Of a stretch of DNA of 35,428 nucleotides, positions 4,741-28,694 are shown piece by piece. The stretch's first letter is position 1. Each line of letters begins with the position of its first letter. The notes below the pieces were generated by a model that worked only from the letters and a program-made list of their open reading frames with translations, was not told where the DNA came from and made no database searches. The stretch comes from a virus. The translations under genes were made by a program, and so were the position numbers. The DNA lies in the IMG/VR virus record IMGVR_UViG_3300021255_000003, one strand, 5' to 3'.

Positions 4741-6186
4741 ATGAATGAAAATTTTTTAGATTTTGATAGTCTATATAATGACTACTATTTAAAATCAAAT
4801 GAATATTATACTAAATGTGCTTGTTATATAAGAGTATCTACTGACGATCAAGTTGAATACTCTCCTACTTCACAATTAAAGCTATTATTAAAATATGCTT
4901 TAGATAATGATTTATTTATAGATAAAAAATATATATTCCACGATGATGGAATAAGTGGTACAAATACAAAGAATAGAGATTCATTTTTAAATATGATAGC
5001 TACTGCTAAATCTAAGCCTAAACCTTTTGAAAAGATAATTGTCTATGATTTTAGTAGATTTGCTAGGAATAAAGAAGAATCAGTAATGTATAAAACATTA
5101 TTAAGAAAAAAACTAAAGATAGATGTTATTAGCATAACCCAACCTCTTACTGAAGGTAAAGAAAGAGTTATATTAGAATCAATGTATGAAGCTATGGACG
5201 AATACTACTCTCTTAACCTATCTGAAAATGTTAGGCGTGGAAAACGTGAAAAAGTTGAACGTGGTGAACATTCAAGCTATGCCCCTTTTGGTTATACTCT
5301 GGTAGATAAAAAACTCGTCATACACGAAGAAAATGCCAAATTAGTTAAGTCTATTTATGATATGTTTATTAATACTGAAAATATTAAGCATATTTGTAAC
5401 ACTTTAAACGATTTAGGTATTAAATCAACGCGTGGTAAGTTATGGGGAAGAAAAACTATAACTTTGATATTAAAAAACAAAACTTATGCTGGATATGTAA
5501 AAAACAGAGATAAATACTATAAAGGTATTCACGAACCTATAATTGCTGAAGAGAAATTTGAAAAAGTACAAAAGATATGGCAATATAGAGATGAACATTT
5601 TAAGAAATGTAAGGATCAGGTTCAACATAACCATTGGTTACGTGGAATATTAAAATGTGGTGAATGTGGATATGGTATGTATTATTTTAAAAGAAAAGAT
5701 AGAGATTATGCTATATTTAATTGTGGAGGTTATACACATAATAGATGTTCTTCTCATTATATTAAAGTTACTGATGTAGAAAATGCTATAATCGAACAAA
5801 TTAAAAATGATTTTACTAATAAAATTGACATTAACATAACTACTAATAATAATGATTCTGAATACAAAATAGCACTATCTAATTTAAAATCTATAGAGAA
5901 TAAACTTGTTAGGATTAAAGAAGCTTATGTTAATGGAATTGATACATTAGAAGAATACAAAGAAAATAAATCTAAACTACAAAATCAATTGGAGGTTGCA
6001 AACAAAAAGATTAAAGAATCACAAAAACCATCTAAAGAAGTTATCTATAAAAAATGTGAACAGGCATATAAGATATTAAGTGATCCAAAAGCTGAAAAGA
6101 ACTTAAAATCAGAAATATCACACAATTTATTTGAAAAAATAACTTATTACAAAGAAAGCAATACCCTTGCTATTACTTATAAATAA
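4741..6186 (+). CDS. int: Large serine recombinase (phage integrase)
   Basis: N-terminal YIRVSTDDQ catalytic motif, resolvase domain, recombinase domain, Cys-rich zinc ribbon (CGECGYGMYY...CGGYTHNRC) and C-terminal coiled coil. Confidence 0.9.
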   Translation: MNENFLDFDSLYNDYYLKSNEYYTKCACYIRVSTDDQVEYSPTSQLKLLLKYALDNDLFIDKKYIFHDDGISGTNTKNRDSFLNMIATAKSKPKPFEKIIVYDFSRFARNKEESVMYKTLLRKKLKIDVISITQPLTEGKERVILESMYEAMDEYYSLNLSENVRRGKREKVERGEHSSYAPFGYTLVDKKLVIHEENAKLVKSIYDMFINTENIKHICNTLNDLGIKSTRGKLWGRKTITLILKNKTYAGYVKNRDKYYKGIHEPIIAEEKFEKVQKIWQYRDEHFKKCKDQVQHNHWLRGILKCGECGYGMYYFKRKDRDYAIFNCGGYTHNRCSSHYIKVTDVENAIIEQIKNDFTNKIDINITTNNNDSEYKIALSNLKSIENKLVRIKEAYVNGIDTLEEYKENKSKLQNQLEVANKKIKESQKPSKEVIYKKCEQAYKILSDPKAEKNLKSEISHNLFEKITYYKESNTLAITYK

Positions 6187-19231: not shown

Positions 19232-19681
19232 TTATGGTGTTGGTGCTACGTAGTCTGTTTCTGCAAAAGTAGAATTATCATATATTTTTAAATCAAAATC
19301 CACTTGTAAAACTTCTTCTGAATTTGCTTCATAAGTTATATTACTTAATGTTGCTGTAAAATCAATTTGTTTTCCGTTAGTACCTTTAAGTAAATTAACA
19401 ATTCTTGTTTTTACTGTTGCCTCTTCACCTACTGCAAATTCTTTACTTAAGATGAATTGACATACAGCACTTGATTTTTTCATTTTTACTGAAGTAGACC
19501 ATGTTGGGTCTAATCCAGTTTTAACGTTGTTTGATAAGAAAGAATATAAATCTTGCCATGTATCAAGTGATTCTCCCTGATCATAACTTAAATTTAGATT
19601 TATTACTTCTTCGTACTGTGCAGTACTAGTTGAACTTATATCGAACAATAATTTAAATTTATTAATTGAACTTTCGTACTT
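19232..19681 (-). CDS. Major tail protein; proposed AAG start at 19681
   Basis: Assigned by position. The track start is a TTG at 19648 with no SD. SD GGAG (19694-19691) plus 9 nt leads to an in-frame AAG. Confidence 0.6.
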   Translation of the reverse strand, partial: KYESSINKFKLLFDISSTSTAQYEEVINLNLSYDQGESLDTWQDLYSFLSNNVKTGLDPTWSTSVKMKKSSAVCQFILSKEFAVGEEATVKTRIVNLLKGTNGKQIDFTATLSNITYEANSEEVLQVDFDLKIYDNSTFAETDYVAPTP

Positions 19682-19683
19682 TA

Positions 19684-20070
19684 TTAATCACTCCATTCCA
19701 CTCTTAAATTACAATTAATATTGTAATAAATTCTTTGATTTTCGTCTCTAAAAGCATAGTTAGGTGTATTACATCTCATAAATGTAATATGTGTGTTATT
19801 TAATGATAAATCATTATTAAAGTGTAATTGATTAAATATTGTGTCAGCTAATCTACGTGTTTCAGTATCATTAGTGGTTCCTCTTATTAGAATATAAAAT
19901 GGTATTTCACTATAAAGAATATGTTGAGGTATAGAACTTTGATTTGTTCCTTCACCTAATTGAATAGCACAACATAATTCATCATTTTGAGGTAAATCTG
20001 GACTATAACATTTGATATTTGTTTTTTGTATTTCTGTTCGTAACAAAGTTACTAACTCTACGATATTCAT
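19684..20070 (-). CDS. Head-tail joining protein (Minor_capsid_3-like / gp17 position)
   Basis: ATG at 20070 with SD AAGAAGGGA; the track start at 20100 lies inside the upstream gene. Confidence 0.65.
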   Translation of the reverse strand: MNIVELVTLLRTEIQKTNIKCYSPDLPQNDELCCAIQLGEGTNQSSIPQHILYSEIPFYILIRGTTNDTETRRLADTIFNQLHFNNDLSLNNTHITFMRCNTPNYAFRDENQRIYYNINCNLRVEWSD

Positions 20071-20071
20071 T

Positions 20072-20428
20072 TTATCCCTTCTTTGCTTCATTAATAGCAT
20101 TTACTAGCATTGTTTGATAATCCTTTTTGTATTTATTGAAAGTTTTTTCAAACCATCTAGGTTGAGCTTGTCTGTTGCCAGCTCCAGCTTTACCACCCTC
20201 GTAATATCTTCTTCTAACGTATGGGCTCCTTTCAATTACAAGTCCCTTTTCAAATTGTGAATGCATTTCACCAGACTGATACATCTGTCCTGTATCTCTA
20301 TAAGTAAATTCGTTAGAATCTTTATAAATTTGTTCTGCTATGGATAAAATAGCTTTTTCTTGAGCTTTTTTGACAACATCTTTTTCAACCCAATTAAGTG
20401 CTTTTTCTAAACTATCAAACTTTCTCAT
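20072..20428 (-). CDS. Head-tail joining protein (Minor_capsid_2 / HK97 gp10-like)
   Basis: Track ORF. ATGA overlap with the upstream stop. Family resemblance by eye. Confidence 0.65.
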   Translation of the reverse strand: MRKFDSLEKALNWVEKDVVKKAQEKAILSIAEQIYKDSNEFTYRDTGQMYQSGEMHSQFEKGLVIERSPYVRRRYYEGGKAGAGNRQAQPRWFEKTFNKYKKDYQTMLVNAINEAKKG

Positions 20429-20757
20429 TGTAATAATACCTCATAATGATGAGCATTTACAGAATCAGGATAAAGAGTGGAAGCTTCAACTATTTTATAT
20501 TCTTTGTTATTAAAGATAATTTTACTATTATTAATAGGAGCAGCGGTTAAGCCTAAAGAATTTACTAAATCATAAAACATTCTAGCCGTTGCTACTATTT
20601 CCCGTCCATTTCTTGTTATATTTAGTTTTAAATTATCTTCAATTTTTACAAATCTTAAATTAGTTGATTCTCCCCACTCATCACCTTCACCTGTATTTCC
20701 TAAATACTCTTTATAAACACAACTATGTGGTAGTAGTCTTTTTGGAATTGGTCTCTT
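20425..20757 (-). CDS. Head-closure protein (Minor_capsid_1-like); no canonical start, proposed AAG start at 20757
   Basis: Hand-translated 110 aa: (K/M)RPIPKRLLPHSCVYKEYLGNTGEGDEWGE...HHYEVLLQ. The frame opens after TAG at 20766-20764. The first ATG is 59 codons in. Absent from the ORF track. Confidence 0.6.
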   Translation of the reverse strand, partial: KRPIPKRLLPHSCVYKEYLGNTGEGDEWGESTNLRFVKIEDNLKLNITRNGREIVATARMFYDLVNSLGLTAAPINNSKIIFNNKEYKIVEASTLYPDSVNAHHYEVLLQ

Positions 20758-20872
20758 TTTTTTCTACCTTTTTCTCTGTATTTTCAATTACTTTCCATCC
20801 AGCCATTTCATACCATTTTAAAGCACCTTCTGTTACTTCTTTTGTAATTGCACCAATTTTTACCTTTACCAT
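20723..20872 (-). CDS. Small hypothetical protein (49 aa, MVKVKIGAITKEVTEGALKWYEMAGWKVIE...)
   Basis: SD GGAAGGTG plus 5 nt, then ATG. Overlaps the start of the head-closure gene in another frame. Confidence 0.5.
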   Translation of the reverse strand: MVKVKIGAITKEVTEGALKWYEMAGWKVIENTEKKVEKKETNSKKTTTT

Positions 20873-21257: not shown

Positions 21258-22103
21258 TTAAGCATTTTTTACTTTTACGATTACAGCTTCTGCATTAGTC
21301 AATACATCTGTATAAACCATACGGCCTTGTAAAGCACTTGCACCAATGTGAGAACCATCTTTTAAGTCATTAATAGTTGGCTCTACTTTCCATTCGTCAA
21401 TTGCTTGTGTCCAGTCTACACCATAAACTATATATTCAACATTCTTATCGTTTTTGTCTTTTTCTAAATCTTGTACGATTACATTAACACCGTTGATTTT
21501 TCCAACAACACCATTTCGTGCTAATTCAGCACCAATTTGTGAAGCGGTATTTGAATATTTTTCATCAGTTAATAGTAGTGTTTCAGTTGCATAGTCTATA
21601 GCTACATACATTCTGTTTTTATCAATACCCTTTTTAGCTAATATAGCTATATCTTTTACAATATTTGAATATACGTTTTCAGCAGTTGAATCTTCTTGTG
21701 TTGATGGTGTACCACCTAATAAAGCTTCAATAGCATCAGCTTCTAATGTTTTAGCTACTGAATATGCTCCACTTTCTAGTCTTTGTGCTACTAAATTATC
21801 TGGCACTGCTTGTGCTTCATATCCATCGATTAATTCATTAATTGCTTTATGATTATCAACTGGGATATTTTTATAACTAGTTGCACTTTGAGATAAAGAT
21901 GCACCATCTTTTACATCATAATCATTAATTGCTACATCAGTATTTCTTACTGGTACTTTTACAGCTCCAGCTACTGGACTTCCTTCATAGTCTCTTGAAA
22001 ATGTATTTCTTATTTTTAGACTTGGTCTCATTAACTTAACAATTGCATTAGCAAATCTTTCTTGTCTTTCATGAGTACCATTTGTTCCGATTGCGTTTGC
22101 CTT
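21258..22103 (-). CDS. Major capsid protein; proposed AAG start at 22103 (track ORF starts at ATG 22031)
   Basis: 24 sense codons (KANAIGTNGTHERQERFANAIVKL) lie upstream of the track ATG with no canonical start. SD AAAAGGAG sits 9 nt before AAG, which follows TGA TGA TAA. Confidence 0.7.
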   Translation of the reverse strand, partial: KANAIGTNGTHERQERFANAIVKLMRPSLKIRNTFSRDYEGSPVAGAVKVPVRNTDVAINDYDVKDGASLSQSATSYKNIPVDNHKAINELIDGYEAQAVPDNLVAQRLESGAYSVAKTLEADAIEALLGGTPSTQEDSTAENVYSNIVKDIAILAKKGIDKNRMYVAIDYATETLLLTDEKYSNTASQIGAELARNGVVGKINGVNVIVQDLEKDKNDKNVEYIVYGVDWTQAIDEWKVEPTINDLKDGSHIGASALQGRMVYTDVLTNAEAVIVKVKNA

Positions 22104-22121
22104 TTATCATCACTCCTTTTC

Positions 22122-22780: not shown

Positions 22781-22902
22781 AGATATAAATAGGAATCGAA
22801 CCTAATTTCTTACCGCGATAGGTTGATAAGTGCCGTTTTATGCCTCTTATTGTTTCATACTAGGAACGGACTGACTCGTTTTACCATATAAACTATATAT
22901 CT
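22781..22902 (-). ncRNA. 122-nt tRNA-like RNA: canonical acceptor, D arm and T arm, with the anticodon region replaced by about 65 nt of extra helices
   Basis: AGATATA-UA-GUUU-AUAUGGUA-AAAC-G ... UUAGG-UUCGAUU-CCUAU-(U)-UAUAUCU. GC-rich island in AT-rich DNA, flanked by terminators. Confidence 0.45.
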
Positions 22903-22953: not shown

Positions 22954-22968
22954 TAATAAAAAAAATTT

Positions 22969-23046
22969 AGGAGGTAGGACTCGCACTATCCCTACATCTC
23001 TTTTGACCCAAAGGGTGCGTGGACGCAAGATTTTTCCACCTCTCCT
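22969..23046 (-). ncRNA. 78-nt cloverleaf-shaped structured RNA candidate
   Basis: AGGAG/CUCCU closing stem, GUGGA/UCCAC arm, ACCC-UUU-GGGU arm, GUAGG/CCUAC arm containing GUGCGAGUCC (T-loop-like). Followed by AAA-U8. Confidence 0.35.
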
Positions 23047-23058
23047 GTAATTATTATA

Positions 23059-24702
23059 CTACTTATTATCATTTTTATCAAAGATTTTTTTAATTTTGCC
23101 ATTTTTTTCGTAATTATCTATTCTTTGTTGTTTTAGTATCTGCATTTGAATTATTGAATTTTTATAACCTTTTTCTTTTTCGGTGGCATTAGGTGTATTT
23201 AATTTTAATGTTATTTTTACATTGTCTTCCATTTGTTTAACTATCCACAATGTATCATCTTTATCTAGTTGTTTATAAACATAATCTGGTTTTTTTAATA
23301 TATTTGGTATTTCGCTTTGATATTTTAGAACTTCGGGATGCTTTTGTAGATGTTCTAATCTATCAGGCATCAACACAACATCTTTTGTTGTTGTAACTAA
23401 TTGTTTGTCATATTTCGCAGCGTCAAATTTACCTACGATACTTTTGTTTACTATTTCCTCTTGTTTTTTTCTTTTTTCTTCTTTTTTTATCCAATTGTTC
23501 AATTGATTCGTAGTTTTTTCTTTGACTGGTTGTGATACTACTTTCGTTCCTATCCACTCATTACCATAATCTCTATATCTATCAGTTTCTTTTAGCCAAC
23601 TATTATATTGACTATTAAAACTACTTAATTGTTTTTGTTTTGATTTTATGTAATCAGGTTCTGCTCCTGTTTCCTTTAGCATTTCTATTTCTCTTTTTTT
23701 ATTTCTTATTTGTCTTTCGTAGTATCTTTGTGTTTGTCTTTCTTGATATGCTTCATCGTTTTCTGCTTTGTCTATTTCTTTTTCTCTATGGATGCTTAAA
23801 TTTGGTATAAAAGCATATCTTGAATGTCCACAATTGATACCTAATATACCAGCAGGCTCTCCATAAGAAGATTGGCTCCACGCATATACTTTAATCTTAT
23901 TTCCTAAACCATCTTCAATAGGTGTAGTATCATCATTTAAAGAAAATATCTTACCTTGGTCTTCTGCACATAATGGTCTAGCTCCCATGTGTTGAGATAT
24001 TTCTACATAGTTATTTCCTGCTAGTTGCATTCTTTCCTCTTGTATTTTATTAGTTGTTTGTCTAGTGTTTGTTCTTAGTACCATTTTAGTATAAGCTTCA
24101 GGGCTCCATTGTGCTCCATTCCTTGCTGTAAAACCTGTTAAACCTTTTTCTGCTAGTTTTGTGACTGCGTCTTGCATTGCTTTTGTTACAGTCTTTGTGC
24201 CAGCCATTACTTCATTAGATACTTTATTTACTATATTTGTATATTCTCTTCCAGCACTTGTTAATAGGCTATTATTTTGTTTATTAAAAGTTGTTAATGT
24301 TTCGTTTATAGCATTACTTATTACATTTTTTACTACTATATCTTCAACTACTGGATTAATCTCATTTAGTATTCCTGCTTTTACTCCTAATTCTAGTTGT
24401 TCTTTATCTACTTCTGTTCCTATCTCTCTAGCTCTTTCAAATATCTTTTCAATATCTTTTTTTGATTTTTTGCTATATTTAGCTATTATTTTAGCATTCT
24501 CTTTAGTTAATCCACCTAACTCTTTTAATCGTTCTAGTTGCCATTCATTTACACCACCAGAACCTACAATTGGTGAATTAGTTTCTAAACTCCATTTATC
24601 TATTTCCATAGGTTTATCTACTGCTATTTTTTTAGCAATATTTAGAAGAAGTTCATTCTCCATATCGATATAATATCTTTCTACTTGTTCTTCTAAAGAC
24701 AT
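23059..24702 (-). CDS. MuF/SPP1 gp7-family minor head protein fused to a C-terminal PBECR-type (Barnase-EndoU-ColicinE5/D-RelE-like) nuclease domain
   Basis: Position after the portal. The C-terminal ~110 aa (DRLEHLQKHPE...ILKKPDYVY...WIV...ITLKLN....GYKNSII) matches my recollection of PBECR domains. Confidence 0.7.
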   Translation of the reverse strand: MSLEEQVERYYIDMENELLLNIAKKIAVDKPMEIDKWSLETNSPIVGSGGVNEWQLERLKELGGLTKENAKIIAKYSKKSKKDIEKIFERAREIGTEVDKEQLELGVKAGILNEINPVVEDIVVKNVISNAINETLTTFNKQNNSLLTSAGREYTNIVNKVSNEVMAGTKTVTKAMQDAVTKLAEKGLTGFTARNGAQWSPEAYTKMVLRTNTRQTTNKIQEERMQLAGNNYVEISQHMGARPLCAEDQGKIFSLNDDTTPIEDGLGNKIKVYAWSQSSYGEPAGILGINCGHSRYAFIPNLSIHREKEIDKAENDEAYQERQTQRYYERQIRNKKREIEMLKETGAEPDYIKSKQKQLSSFNSQYNSWLKETDRYRDYGNEWIGTKVVSQPVKEKTTNQLNNWIKKEEKRKKQEEIVNKSIVGKFDAAKYDKQLVTTTKDVVLMPDRLEHLQKHPEVLKYQSEIPNILKKPDYVYKQLDKDDTLWIVKQMEDNVKITLKLNTPNATEKEKGYKNSIIQMQILKQQRIDNYEKNGKIKKIFDKNDNK

Positions 24703-24719
24703 TTATATCACCACCTATT

Positions 24720-25031
24720 TTAATTAAAAAAATTTTTACAAACATCATGTATCATATCATGGCTTTTACTACTTAAATCACATAATATTTCTTCATTATA
24801 ATTTATTTCATCTGATAAATAAGACCAGATATAACAATGCATTAATTCGTGATACAAAGTTTCTTTTTGCTTTTCTTTTGATACTTCTTTATTGATTAAT
24901 ATTTGTTGAGTGCTTAATTTTGTTGCACCATAATAATAACTATTTTCATTATTATCATTAAATACTTTTTTTACTTCATCAGCTGTTGCATAATCAATTG
25001 TCCAATTGTAATTATTCATTTTGAAGTTCAT
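24720..25031 (-). CDS. Small HExxH metallopeptidase-like protein (103 aa)
   Basis: YHELMHCY motif. SD AAGGAG plus 7 nt, then ATG at 25031; the track start at 25058 lies inside the portal gene. Confidence 0.55.
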   Translation of the reverse strand: MNFKMNNYNWTIDYATADEVKKVFNDNNENSYYYGATKLSTQQILINKEVSKEKQKETLYHELMHCYIWSYLSDEINYNEEILCDLSSKSHDMIHDVCKNFFN

Positions 25032-26475
25032 TTGCATTCTCCTTATCACCCATACCATAGAAATCTATTCCTTCAGGTGTAATTATTTTATTATCTTCTT
25101 TTATTTTTTCTATCTCATCTGTTACTTCTGCTTCTTCATAATGTAAATATTTAGTCATGAACTTTTCTTTACTTATTAAACCAGCATTATATAGATTAAT
25201 TCCACGATTAATTAGTGCTTCCTCATCTTGTATAATACTATCATCAAATGTAATAGATATTTCTTTATACTTAATACCTTCCATTTCACATATAGTTGCT
25301 ATTAAATCATATAAAGCATTGTATATTGGAATTTGGTGTTGAGATTTAGTCCTAAATGTATCACTATTTTCACTAACTACTTCAGTAGCAGTTTTTAATC
25401 CATCTTTATCAAATGAATAAAAATCATTACCTAATCTTACACCAGCACTTAAGTATTTTAATTCAGTATTAATGGCTTCTATATATTCATTTCTTAGACT
25501 AAAGTCTATTTCTTTTACTGGTTGATTTTCCATTCCTTCTAGTGCTACATATATGTCATCAGAGGTATCAAAATAACTAGCATAAATGATATTGTTGTTA
25601 TCATCTACTCCTGTAGCTTTCTTTTTAACCGCACTTCTATCTACTAATATTCTTCTTCTACCACTTACATATTCGTGGTCAAATCCATCATATTTAATAT
25701 CTATTGCTTTAAATTTATCTAAATGATTAGCAAGTATTGATAATCCCATTGGGCTACCTGTATCAAAGTTATTTGCTATTGGTAATCTCCATACTTGGAA
25801 TCTTGGATGTTCTGTTTCTATTACTTCATCTTCTTCAATATCAGGATATAATGTAGAAACATCTATTGCTTTTCCTAATGTATTTTCACTTTTTGATTTA
25901 TATAATTCAGTTGCTTTTTTATATTCTCCATTATCATATTCATGATAAGTTAGTAATGTATAATATATTTTCTTATTTTCAGTACCTTCTACTGTTCGTG
26001 ATACTGTTATTATTCCATTTATATACGAATTAGTATATTTATATGGTAAAACAACATCTCCATCTATATAATCTACAATTGTTTTGTCATCCTTTTTATA
26101 TTCAACAGTAACCATCGTACCGTAGGCATATTCTTTTTCTAGAAATGGTAAAAAATTAGTACTAAAACTATTTTCTTTACTATCTAACACATCCCATAAC
26201 TTTTTAGTATTCTTTTTGTTGTCTAATTTTATTTCTGCTCTTTCACTCCATAATAGATTAGAAAAATCTTCACATATTTTCTTTGGCATATTTAAAGTTT
26301 TTCTTTCAACTAAACATTCCTTACCATCAACCAATTTAGCCTTATAGTAGTGAAAATCATTTACACTACCTCTGTAATATTGGTGACAAATTGCCATCAT
26401 ATCATATATAGTTCCTACTACTACGTTGATATTTTTTTTACTTAGTACTTGTTGAATATTATTGTATAGTTCCTT
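25012..26475 (-). CDS. Portal protein (SPP1 gp6-like); proposed AAG start at 26475 (track ORF starts at ATG 26400)
   Basis: The frame is open from TGA at 26505-26503. Strong SD AAAGGTGGTG plus 5 nt leads to AAG. No ATG/GTG/TTG for 25 codons. TAAAG overlap with the upstream stop. Confidence 0.75.
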   Translation of the reverse strand, partial: KELYNNIQQVLSKKNINVVVGTIYDMMAICHQYYRGSVNDFHYYKAKLVDGKECLVERKTLNMPKKICEDFSNLLWSERAEIKLDNKKNTKKLWDVLDSKENSFSTNFLPFLEKEYAYGTMVTVEYKKDDKTIVDYIDGDVVLPYKYTNSYINGIITVSRTVEGTENKKIYYTLLTYHEYDNGEYKKATELYKSKSENTLGKAIDVSTLYPDIEEDEVIETEHPRFQVWRLPIANNFDTGSPMGLSILANHLDKFKAIDIKYDGFDHEYVSGRRRILVDRSAVKKKATGVDDNNNIIYASYFDTSDDIYVALEGMENQPVKEIDFSLRNEYIEAINTELKYLSAGVRLGNDFYSFDKDGLKTATEVVSENSDTFRTKSQHQIPIYNALYDLIATICEMEGIKYKEISITFDDSIIQDEEALINRGINLYNAGLISKEKFMTKYLHYEEAEVTDEIEKIKEDNKIITPEGIDFYGMGDKENANELQNE

Positions 26476-28440: not shown

Positions 28441-28514
28441 TGGTAGCGGATGTTGGATTTGCACCACTCCACAGGCTAAAGAGACCTGTATGCTACTATT
28501 ACACTACACCCGCG
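28441..28514 (-). tRNA. Initiator-tRNA-like gene with anticodon CUU (non-canonical T and D arms), encoded ACCA 3' end
   Basis: 5'-CGCGGGUGUAGUGUAAUAGUAGCAUACAGGUCUCUUUAGCCUGUGGAGUGGUGCAAAUCCAACAUCCGCUACCA-3'. 7 acceptor pairs plus a C1xU72 mismatch. Anticodon arm CAGGU-CUCUUUA-GCCUG. Hand-folded only. Confidence 0.5.
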
Positions 28515-28541
28515 ATAAATAAAACTGCCTAATATAGGCAG
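28515..28541 (-). terminator. Rho-independent terminator (CTGCCTA-TAT-TAGGCAG plus TTTTATTT)
   Basis: Perfect 7-bp stem. The U-tract ends at the first base of the tRNA-like gene. Confidence 0.7.
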
Positions 28542-28694
28542 CCCACTAAGAAAAACAATTGTTTATATTCCCTAATCCACATCAAGAATATTTGCCTTGC
28601 ACCAGTAAAGGATAGATATAGTTATTATTTAATTCTTTCTGCATTCTAATAAAGGAGGTGCGTTTTGAAAGAATACTATAGCAAGGTTCCCACT

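Follow-up and report, generated by a model that had tools for sequence, protein, structure and literature searches.

The window (the whole stretch of viral DNA that was analysed, 35,428 nucleotides) carries on its minus strand a gene that encodes a siphovirus tail-tube protein, directly preceded by a tail terminator gene. The features at the junction of these two genes are the following:

19684-20100, minus strand: tail terminator gene (Phage_tail_terminator_6), directly upstream of the tail-tube gene
19694-19691, minus strand: GGAG, the Shine-Dalgarno (SD) core of the tail-tube gene (extended match GGAGTGAT)
19690-19688, minus strand: TGA opening the tail-tube frame, followed by TTA, ATA (19684-19682), and AAG
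19681-19679, minus strand: AAG, proposed tail-tube start codon, aligned with the ATG or AGG and with the M of homologues
19232..19681, minus strand: tail-tube (major tail) protein gene, 149 codons from AAG to stop
19648-19646, minus strand: TTG, the start chosen by gene callers and rejected here, without SD and preceded by AATAAATTTAAATTA

The product of this gene gave a weak match to the major tail protein family phrog_820 (E=6.8e-4) and no match to the sequences of solved structures (PDB). Its AlphaFold model (mean pLDDT 82.7, built on 21 sequences) was matched by Foldseek, with a probability of 1.0 and TM of 0.55-0.70, to tail-tube proteins, those of Sf11, monocin (MttP), 80alpha, SPP1 (gp17.1), and lambda (gpV). 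The order terminator, tube, chaperones, tape measure was also recovered in the window: downstream of the tail-tube gene lie two small ORFs and then a 624-aa tape-measure-like gene, and the second of them has a long 5' extension devoid of a start, a typical mark of chaperone frameshift products. The Foldseek matches and this gene order bear out the identity of major tail protein that the first-pass annotation had given to the gene.

On the minus strand, GGAG is separated from AAG by a spacer of 9 nt, within which falls the TAA stop of the tail terminator gene (19686-19684), and the codons after AAG are TAC GAA AGT TCA ATT AAT AAA TTT AAA TTA, then TTG, then TTC GAT. An SD sequence is present, and the triplet found at the start position, 5-10 nt downstream, is AAG and not ATG, GTG, or TTG. 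The TTG at 19648, 42 nt after the SD, is the sole ATG, GTG, or TTG near the 5' end of the frame, which appears in the mechanical ORF list only as a TTG-started ORF of 138 aa. Our reading of the strand thus confirmed the layout described by the first-pass annotation (GGAG, 9 nt, AAG, in a frame open from TGA), its statement that the only canonical start is an SD-less TTG, and its remark that the capsid gene has the same geometry (GGAG at 22116-22113, TGA TGA TAA, then AAG at 22103-22101). Further weak, non-canonical in-frame candidates are ATT (19666) and ATA (19684), the latter 3 nt upstream of AAG and 6 nt after GGAG, where it could give some initiation by the host initiator.

In the window, which has 27% GC and an AAG trinucleotide frequency of 0.031, an AAG starts 5-10 nt downstream of 32 of the 205 GG[AT]G sites. 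GGAG followed by AAG is common by itself, and the argument must therefore come from homology. What lies above chance is that AAG stands exactly at the position of the homologues' ATG, in five late genes, and that it covaries with the anticodon of a tRNA.

The tail-tube start in homologues and relatives

Among 120 close homologues of the tail-tube protein, those with ordinary starts begin with MYESSV... or MYESNV..., MPKYESS, or MSLKYESS, and the commonest canonical form places its M exactly on the K encoded by the AAG codon of the window. Other database tail entries begin with MEGV..., MEEW..., or MILK..., and these are best explained as extensions made by gene callers into the SD, because there is either an in-frame ATG in the ATGGA(A/G)G of the upstream gene (its final E-W codons) or a GTG inside the SD. 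The 11 residues upstream of the TTG (YESSxxxFKLL) are conserved at the protein level, and no full-length homologue lacks them. This, together with the position of the homologues' M on the AAG codon, supports the earlier proposal that the gene starts at the SD-positioned AAG and not at the TTG, which absence of these residues from homologues would have contradicted. In the structural model, the predicted strand beta-1 corresponds to residues 9-14 (FKLLFD) and would be cut by a start at the TTG.

The same codon is AAG in the window and in L004, L009/10, L015, L016, L026, L027, L058, L062, and L064/65, AGG in L001-3 and L013, and ATG in L086 and L087, where the distance to the SD is unchanged. 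The GGAG or GGAGG core is kept in all aligned relatives. The codon preceding AAG varies between ATA, AGA, AAA, CTA, and TTA, and in L016 it is a TAA stop; no upstream codon can therefore be a conserved start. The TTG of the window is TTA in eight of the ten aligned relatives, and in L001 the first canonical start of the tail-tube gene is found only at codon 46. AAG is kept in independent assemblies of other studies, as well as in a sheep-gut contig about 94% identical across the site. In a phage collection, no match was obtained by DNA search or by tblastn with the tail protein, and a search with the capsid protein recovered one unannotated record (37% identity).

Late genes with AAG at the start position and the tRNA at their head

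Four other late genes of the window have an AAG at the expected start position, and a tRNA gene lies at the head of the late block, 8.8 kb upstream of the tail-tube start and directly before the small-terminase gene:

28522..28544, minus strand: terminator-like hairpin, directly upstream of the tRNA gene
28514-28441, minus strand: initiator-type tRNA with anticodon CUU (Rfam tRNA, 38.6 bits at 28445-28513)
28417-28415, minus strand: proposed AAG start of the small-terminase gene (phrog_4102), SD AAGGTGG then 5 nt
26475-26473, minus strand: proposed AAG start of the portal gene, SD AAAGGTGGTGAT; the portal family phrog_533 matches from residue 6 on
22103-22101, minus strand: proposed AAG start of the major capsid gene, aligned with the M of 'MANAIG...' homologues
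20757-20755, minus strand: proposed AAG start of the head-tail adaptor gene (Minor_capsid_1); Pfam and PHROG profiles begin 4-7 residues from the frame opening

The remaining genes of the window have SD-positioned ATG, GTG, or TTG. In relatives, the small-terminase start is AGG (L001) or AAG (L004, L086), and the portal start is AAG in all loci with anticodon CUU, AGG in those with CCU, and ATG in the tRNA-less loci. At the minor-capsid-2 start, the window has ATG, L086 has AAG, and L001 has AGG; for this gene and the tail tube, the toggling of starts among tRNA-bearing phages always occurs at the same codon. The first ATG of the capsid gene is 24 codons further on and has no SD. In relatives, the adaptor gene has a TTG or ATG one codon further upstream, three codons before a conserved P-I-P-K motif; the AAG of the window lies two codons before this motif. 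The adaptor AAG closes an A8 run (G AAAAAAAA G; 20755-20764, minus strand), a site considered for transcriptional slippage, and overlaps the end of a 53-codon upstream ORF. An out-of-frame ATG (22108-22110, minus strand), 2 nt after the capsid SD, opens a 13-codon ORF (MIKGKRNRNKWYS); ATG ATW AAR G before the capsid gene is also found in L001 and L004 and is absent from many other relatives.

The genes of these phages are systematically mis-annotated by automatic pipelines. Gene callers fall short by 24 residues for the capsid, 25 for the portal, and 12 for the tail tube (11 residues lost and Leu12 read as Met), and leave the adaptor at under half its length. The public entries are cut at internal ATG or TTG codons (21258-22031, 19232-19648, 25012-26400, and 20425-20580, all minus strand); the capsid entry P0001, for example, has 257 aa versus 281 aa in full-length homologues.

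The bounds of the tRNA gene correspond to the Rfam span plus the preceding C and the ACCA that follows. Its sequence reads CGCGGG...CCGCUACCA, with a C1xU72 mismatch, G2:C71, C3:G70, A73, and an encoded CCA, and its anticodon loop, CUCUUUA, gives the anticodon CUU, the complement of AAG. ARAGORN misses this tRNA and labels its orthologues tRNA-Lys or tRNA-Arg. Twelve more loci, from other assemblies, have an orthologue at the corresponding position. The mismatch at 1x72 is C1xU72 in the window and L027, A1xA72 in L087, and C1xA72 in L001, L004, L005, L010, L013, L015, L026, L064, and L086, and G2:C71, C3:G70, and A73 are invariant in all 15 aligned tRNAs; G2:C71 and C3:G70, with the discriminator A73, are determinants of the formylase. 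Pairing reached 98% in copies with a standard-shaped cloverleaf, where 14 of 20 pairs showed compensatory changes and none of 500 shuffles did as well; the window-type copies were 100% paired, with an eight-layer acceptor stack and a T stem of 3-4 bp. A scan of viral contigs with the anticodon arm (CAGGTCTNNNTAGCCTG), aimed at versions with a different anticodon, showed that, among the matches listed (80 loci), only the CTT versions are real tRNAs, the rest being chance matches.

With bacterial tRNAfMet this tRNA shares the 1x72 mismatch, G2:C71, C3:G70, A73, CCA, G29:C41, and G30:C40, and the CGC... and ...GCAACCA ends of the phage tRNAs are the same as those of the E. coli molecule. The A11:U24 pair, shared with bacterial tRNAfMet in most of the relatives' tRNAs (L001, L010, L013, L026, L064, and L087), is replaced in window-type copies, whose D stem is GUGU/GCAU, by U:A at the equivalent place. 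Of the three G:C pairs in the anticodon stem of tRNAfMet, the window copy has two, the third pair being U31.G39, which like G30:C40 is invariant across copies; pair 29:41 is G:C in five and A:U in five of the ten standard-shaped relatives. The phage tRNAs also differ from tRNAfMet by U37 in most copies and, centrally for the finding, by the anticodon, CUU in the window and CCU in L001 and L013 in place of CAU. The window copy departs further from a standard initiator by C1xU72 where C1xA72 would stand, by the lack of A11:U24, and by its eight-layer acceptor stack and shortened T stem. A standard T loop is present in L010, L064, and L087, and the less derived copies (L001, L010, L013, L026, and L064) are, by their sequence, plainly tRNAfMet-like.

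Anticodons and start codons across loci

In the two loci with anticodon CCU, L001 and L013, the capsid, portal, and tail-tube genes all start with AGG, and in L001 the distal-tail, minor-capsid-2, and small-terminase genes do so as well. In every CUU locus AAG stands at the start of both the portal and the capsid gene, and the remaining late genes have either AAG or ATG. This covariation is based on two anticodon classes, CUU (many loci) and CCU (two lineages). When the count was limited to loci whose capsid gene is preceded by 7.5 kb or more of sequence, 12 of the 13 with a non-ATG capsid start carried the tRNA, versus none of the 38 in which the capsid gene starts with ATG (Fisher p = 8e-11, with no correction for relatedness). 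The internal share of AAG was 0.13-0.24 in CUU phages and likewise 0.13-0.24 in tRNA-less relatives; not being raised in the tRNA bearers, it argues against a codon-supplement role.

The single non-ATG locus counted without the tRNA is L016, which has AAG starts; a covariance-model search of its whole record recovered no tRNA. L016 is a chromosomal contig with Cas9, in which CRISPR-type repeats flank a 4.8 kb phage piece; chimeric, and with only 4.8 kb of phage DNA, it is therefore uninformative on the tRNA of that phage. This contig (L016/G001, with L090 and L091) is 38 kb long and carries a Cas9-sized ORF (1340 aa), and the phage piece, from scaffold to tail gene, is flanked by two copies of a type II-like CRISPR repeat (GTTTTAGATCTATGTCATCTTTGATGGTATTAAAAC). 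It is probably an assembly chimera created through a spacer, and its CRISPR context hints at a host that targets these phages.

Two further classes of tRNA were found in relatives:

L011:3993-4069 and L023:3764-3840: tRNA(CAU) ahead of the packaging genes, in ATG-type relatives
L044:1029-1102 and L045:1823-1896: third initiator-like class, anticodon GCA, with G1xA72 or A1xA72 and a ...GCAACCA end

The tRNA(CAU) of L011 and L023 shares its genomic site, its ...GCAACCA end, and U31.G39 with the altered-anticodon tRNAs and differs from them by its CAU anticodon and a U1:A72 pair, in phages whose capsid and portal genes start with ATG; it may represent their ancestral form. In L044, the tape-measure frame opens with TGC (L044:11618), directly after a stop and 7 nt after GGAGGGG, and its first canonical start is 56 codons in. 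TGC may be the start codon of this gene, the one gene concerned.

A proposed private start codon and its alternatives

It is almost certain that the lysine codon AAG opens the tail-tube gene, because this phage has a start-type tRNA of its own with an AAG-reading anticodon. It is very likely that in five late genes the AAG start is placed by its SD, GGAG in the tail-tube gene, and read in the P site by the phage initiator tRNA(CUU). In the mechanism that we propose, the GGAG located 9 nt upstream would position AAG 19681-19679 as the tail-tube start, and this codon would be read in the ribosomal P site by a phage initiator tRNA bearing CUU instead of CAU. This tRNA would be the first element of the late block of packaging and virion genes, the small-terminase, portal, major capsid, and head-tail adaptor genes would have the same AAG start, and efficient translation of the five virion genes would have to await synthesis of the start tRNA encoded by the phage. 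The sequence comparisons show the position of the start, the initiator architecture of the tRNA, its co-occurrence with non-ATG starts, and the covariation of anticodon and start codon; we infer that this tRNA is expressed and charged and that IF2, IF3, and the P site accept it. The tRNA(CUU) likely carries Lys, because U35, U36, and A73 are LysRS identity elements, and on general identity rules the tRNA(CCU) likely carries Arg, since MetRS needs the CAU anticodon. More generally, it is likely that gut phages carry a natural private start codon system, in which an initiator tRNA with an anticodon other than CAU is matched by the starts of virion and packaging genes; the anticodons would be CUU here, CCU in relatives, and possibly GCA in L044 and L045.

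The main rival, which we consider unlikely, is that AAG or ATA is read as a near-cognate codon by the host fMet-tRNA(CAU) with the help of the strong SD, the phage tRNA being an elongator for a rare Lys codon. Phages often carry tRNAs for rare codons, ARAGORN names the orthologues as elongators, and ATA is a start of table 11, located 6 nt after GGAG. However, the starts switch from AAG to AGG when the anticodon switches from CUU to CCU, in several genes and in two lineages, the tRNA is absent from all 38 ATG-type relatives, its body is of the initiator type (1x72 mismatch, CGC...GCAACCA ends, A73), and internal AAG codons are no more frequent in its bearers. The ATA lacks conservation, relatives having AGA, AAA, CTA, TTA, or TAA in its place, and AAG and AGG are very poor near-cognates for tRNAfMet. 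A start at the SD-less TTG (138 aa, MFDISSTS...), perhaps through coupling or leaderless-like initiation, appears very improbable: it has in its favour that this TTG is the only ATG, GTG, or TTG close to the frame's 5' end and that the database entries P0125 and P0166 are called from it, but it would truncate strand beta-1 and discard 11 residues kept by all full-length homologues, at a codon that is mostly TTA in relatives and with no canonical start before codon 46 in L001.

There is hardly any room for the reading in which the ATG-to-AAG changes reflect decay in a defective prophage or assembly errors. Each AAG is indeed one base from ATG, but five genes are changed here, the pattern recurs in more than 12 independent contigs of different studies with capsid identities of 51% to 96%, the frames are intact and conserved as protein, and the matching tRNA co-occurs. 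Equally hard to credit is a start at an upstream or out-of-frame ATG followed by recoding, either from ATG 19696 with TGA read as Trp or through a +1 shift in the capsid gene (ATG 22110). Readthrough of TGA would put ATG GAG TGA TTA ATA AAG in frame, and ATG ATA AAA G lies between the capsid SD and its AAG. These ATGs are nevertheless inside the SD or 0-2 nt after it, that of the tail gene is simply part of the final E-W codons of the preceding gene, and L015, L016, L026, and L064 have no ATG between SD and AAG. Genetic code 4, with TGA as Trp and a tail start at ATG 19696, was ruled out by the TAA or TAG that directly closes the capsid, portal, and adaptor frames before AAG and by the good packing of the window's genes under table 11, and the +1 frameshift before the capsid gene by the many relatives without that ATG.

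The initiation by tRNA(CUU) that we favor has engineered analogues in the laboratory. Engineered anticodon mutants of the initiator tRNA start translation at matching non-AUG codons (PMC11744186), and such constructs include a panel of 32 anticodon variants (PMC11744186) and a tRNA(AAC) (bioRxiv 10.1101/2021.05.25.445580), the amber initiator CUA being another engineered orthogonal analogue. The principle is shared, a change of anticodon moving initiation to the complementary SD-placed codon, whereas the phage system would be natural, conserved, and matched to a group of late genes. The engineered tRNAini(CUU) and tRNAini(CCU) 'perform quite poorly' in E. coli cell-free reactions (PMC11744186), yet these are precisely the two anticodons that nature seems to employ. 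Unlike these constructs, the natural tRNAs have U37 in most copies and the invariant U31.G39, and one might speculate that these two features compensate for the poor performance. A full-text literature search for a published natural private start codon recovered only engineered analogues.

Among natural molecules, ordinary tRNAfMet and the tRNA(CAU) of L011 and L023 are the nearest relatives of the tRNA(CUU). Two natural phenomena are also comparable. Rare non-AUG starts (GUG, UUG, AUU in infC, AUA) similarly use an SD-positioned non-AUG triplet, but they depart from AUG in the first or third position and are read by tRNAfMet(CAU), whereas AAG and AGG differ at the middle base and would have a dedicated tRNA. 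Conceptually nearest are recoded gut phages, in which suppressor tRNAs recode the stop codons of late genes; there too a phage tRNA gives a new meaning to a codon that late structural genes contain in excess, which would make translation of these genes depend on that tRNA, but suppressors act in elongation at in-frame stops, whereas the tRNA(CUU) is proposed to act at initiation.

The purpose of such a system is a matter of speculation: late-protein synthesis could be gated on the phage's own tRNA, or virion synthesis could continue when the host tRNAfMet is cleaved or in short supply. VapC-type toxins are described in one account as targeting tRNAfMet (PMC10264068), and the phage tRNA may offer a bypass of host defences that cleave the initiator tRNA. 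If confirmed, the system would mean that AUG-family start codons are not universal in bacteria-based translation and that a virus can redefine the start codon of chosen genes via one small RNA, adding a new layer of phage gene control at the translation of late genes. It would also provide synthetic biology with a natural, ready-made orthogonal initiation pair and would raise the question of an N-terminal Lys or Arg, formylated or not.

Several other features were observed in the window. A skipping-rope RNA (Rfam RF02924, 55.3 bits, E ~1e-12) is located at 22966-23049 on the minus strand, between the minor-capsid-2 and scaffold genes, and was not detected in L001, L004, and L005. At 22781-22901 (minus strand), a weak, over-long tRNA-like match (18.6 bits, below threshold) has a good T arm (GGTTCGATTCC); this stretch is replaced in other metagenomes, whose contigs have 120 different letters between 22789 and 22894. 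In L009, L010, and L058, a normal tRNA-Pro(UGG) lies just upstream of the scaffold and capsid genes. Residues 424-535 of the Phage_min_cap2 protein (23059-24702, minus strand) gave a sub-threshold match to a PBECR2 nuclease-like domain (22.9 bits; cutoff 27.1). Finally, a large serine recombinase with Resolvase, Recombinase, and Zn_ribbon_recom domains is encoded at 4741-6186 on the plus strand, which is consistent with a temperate phage.
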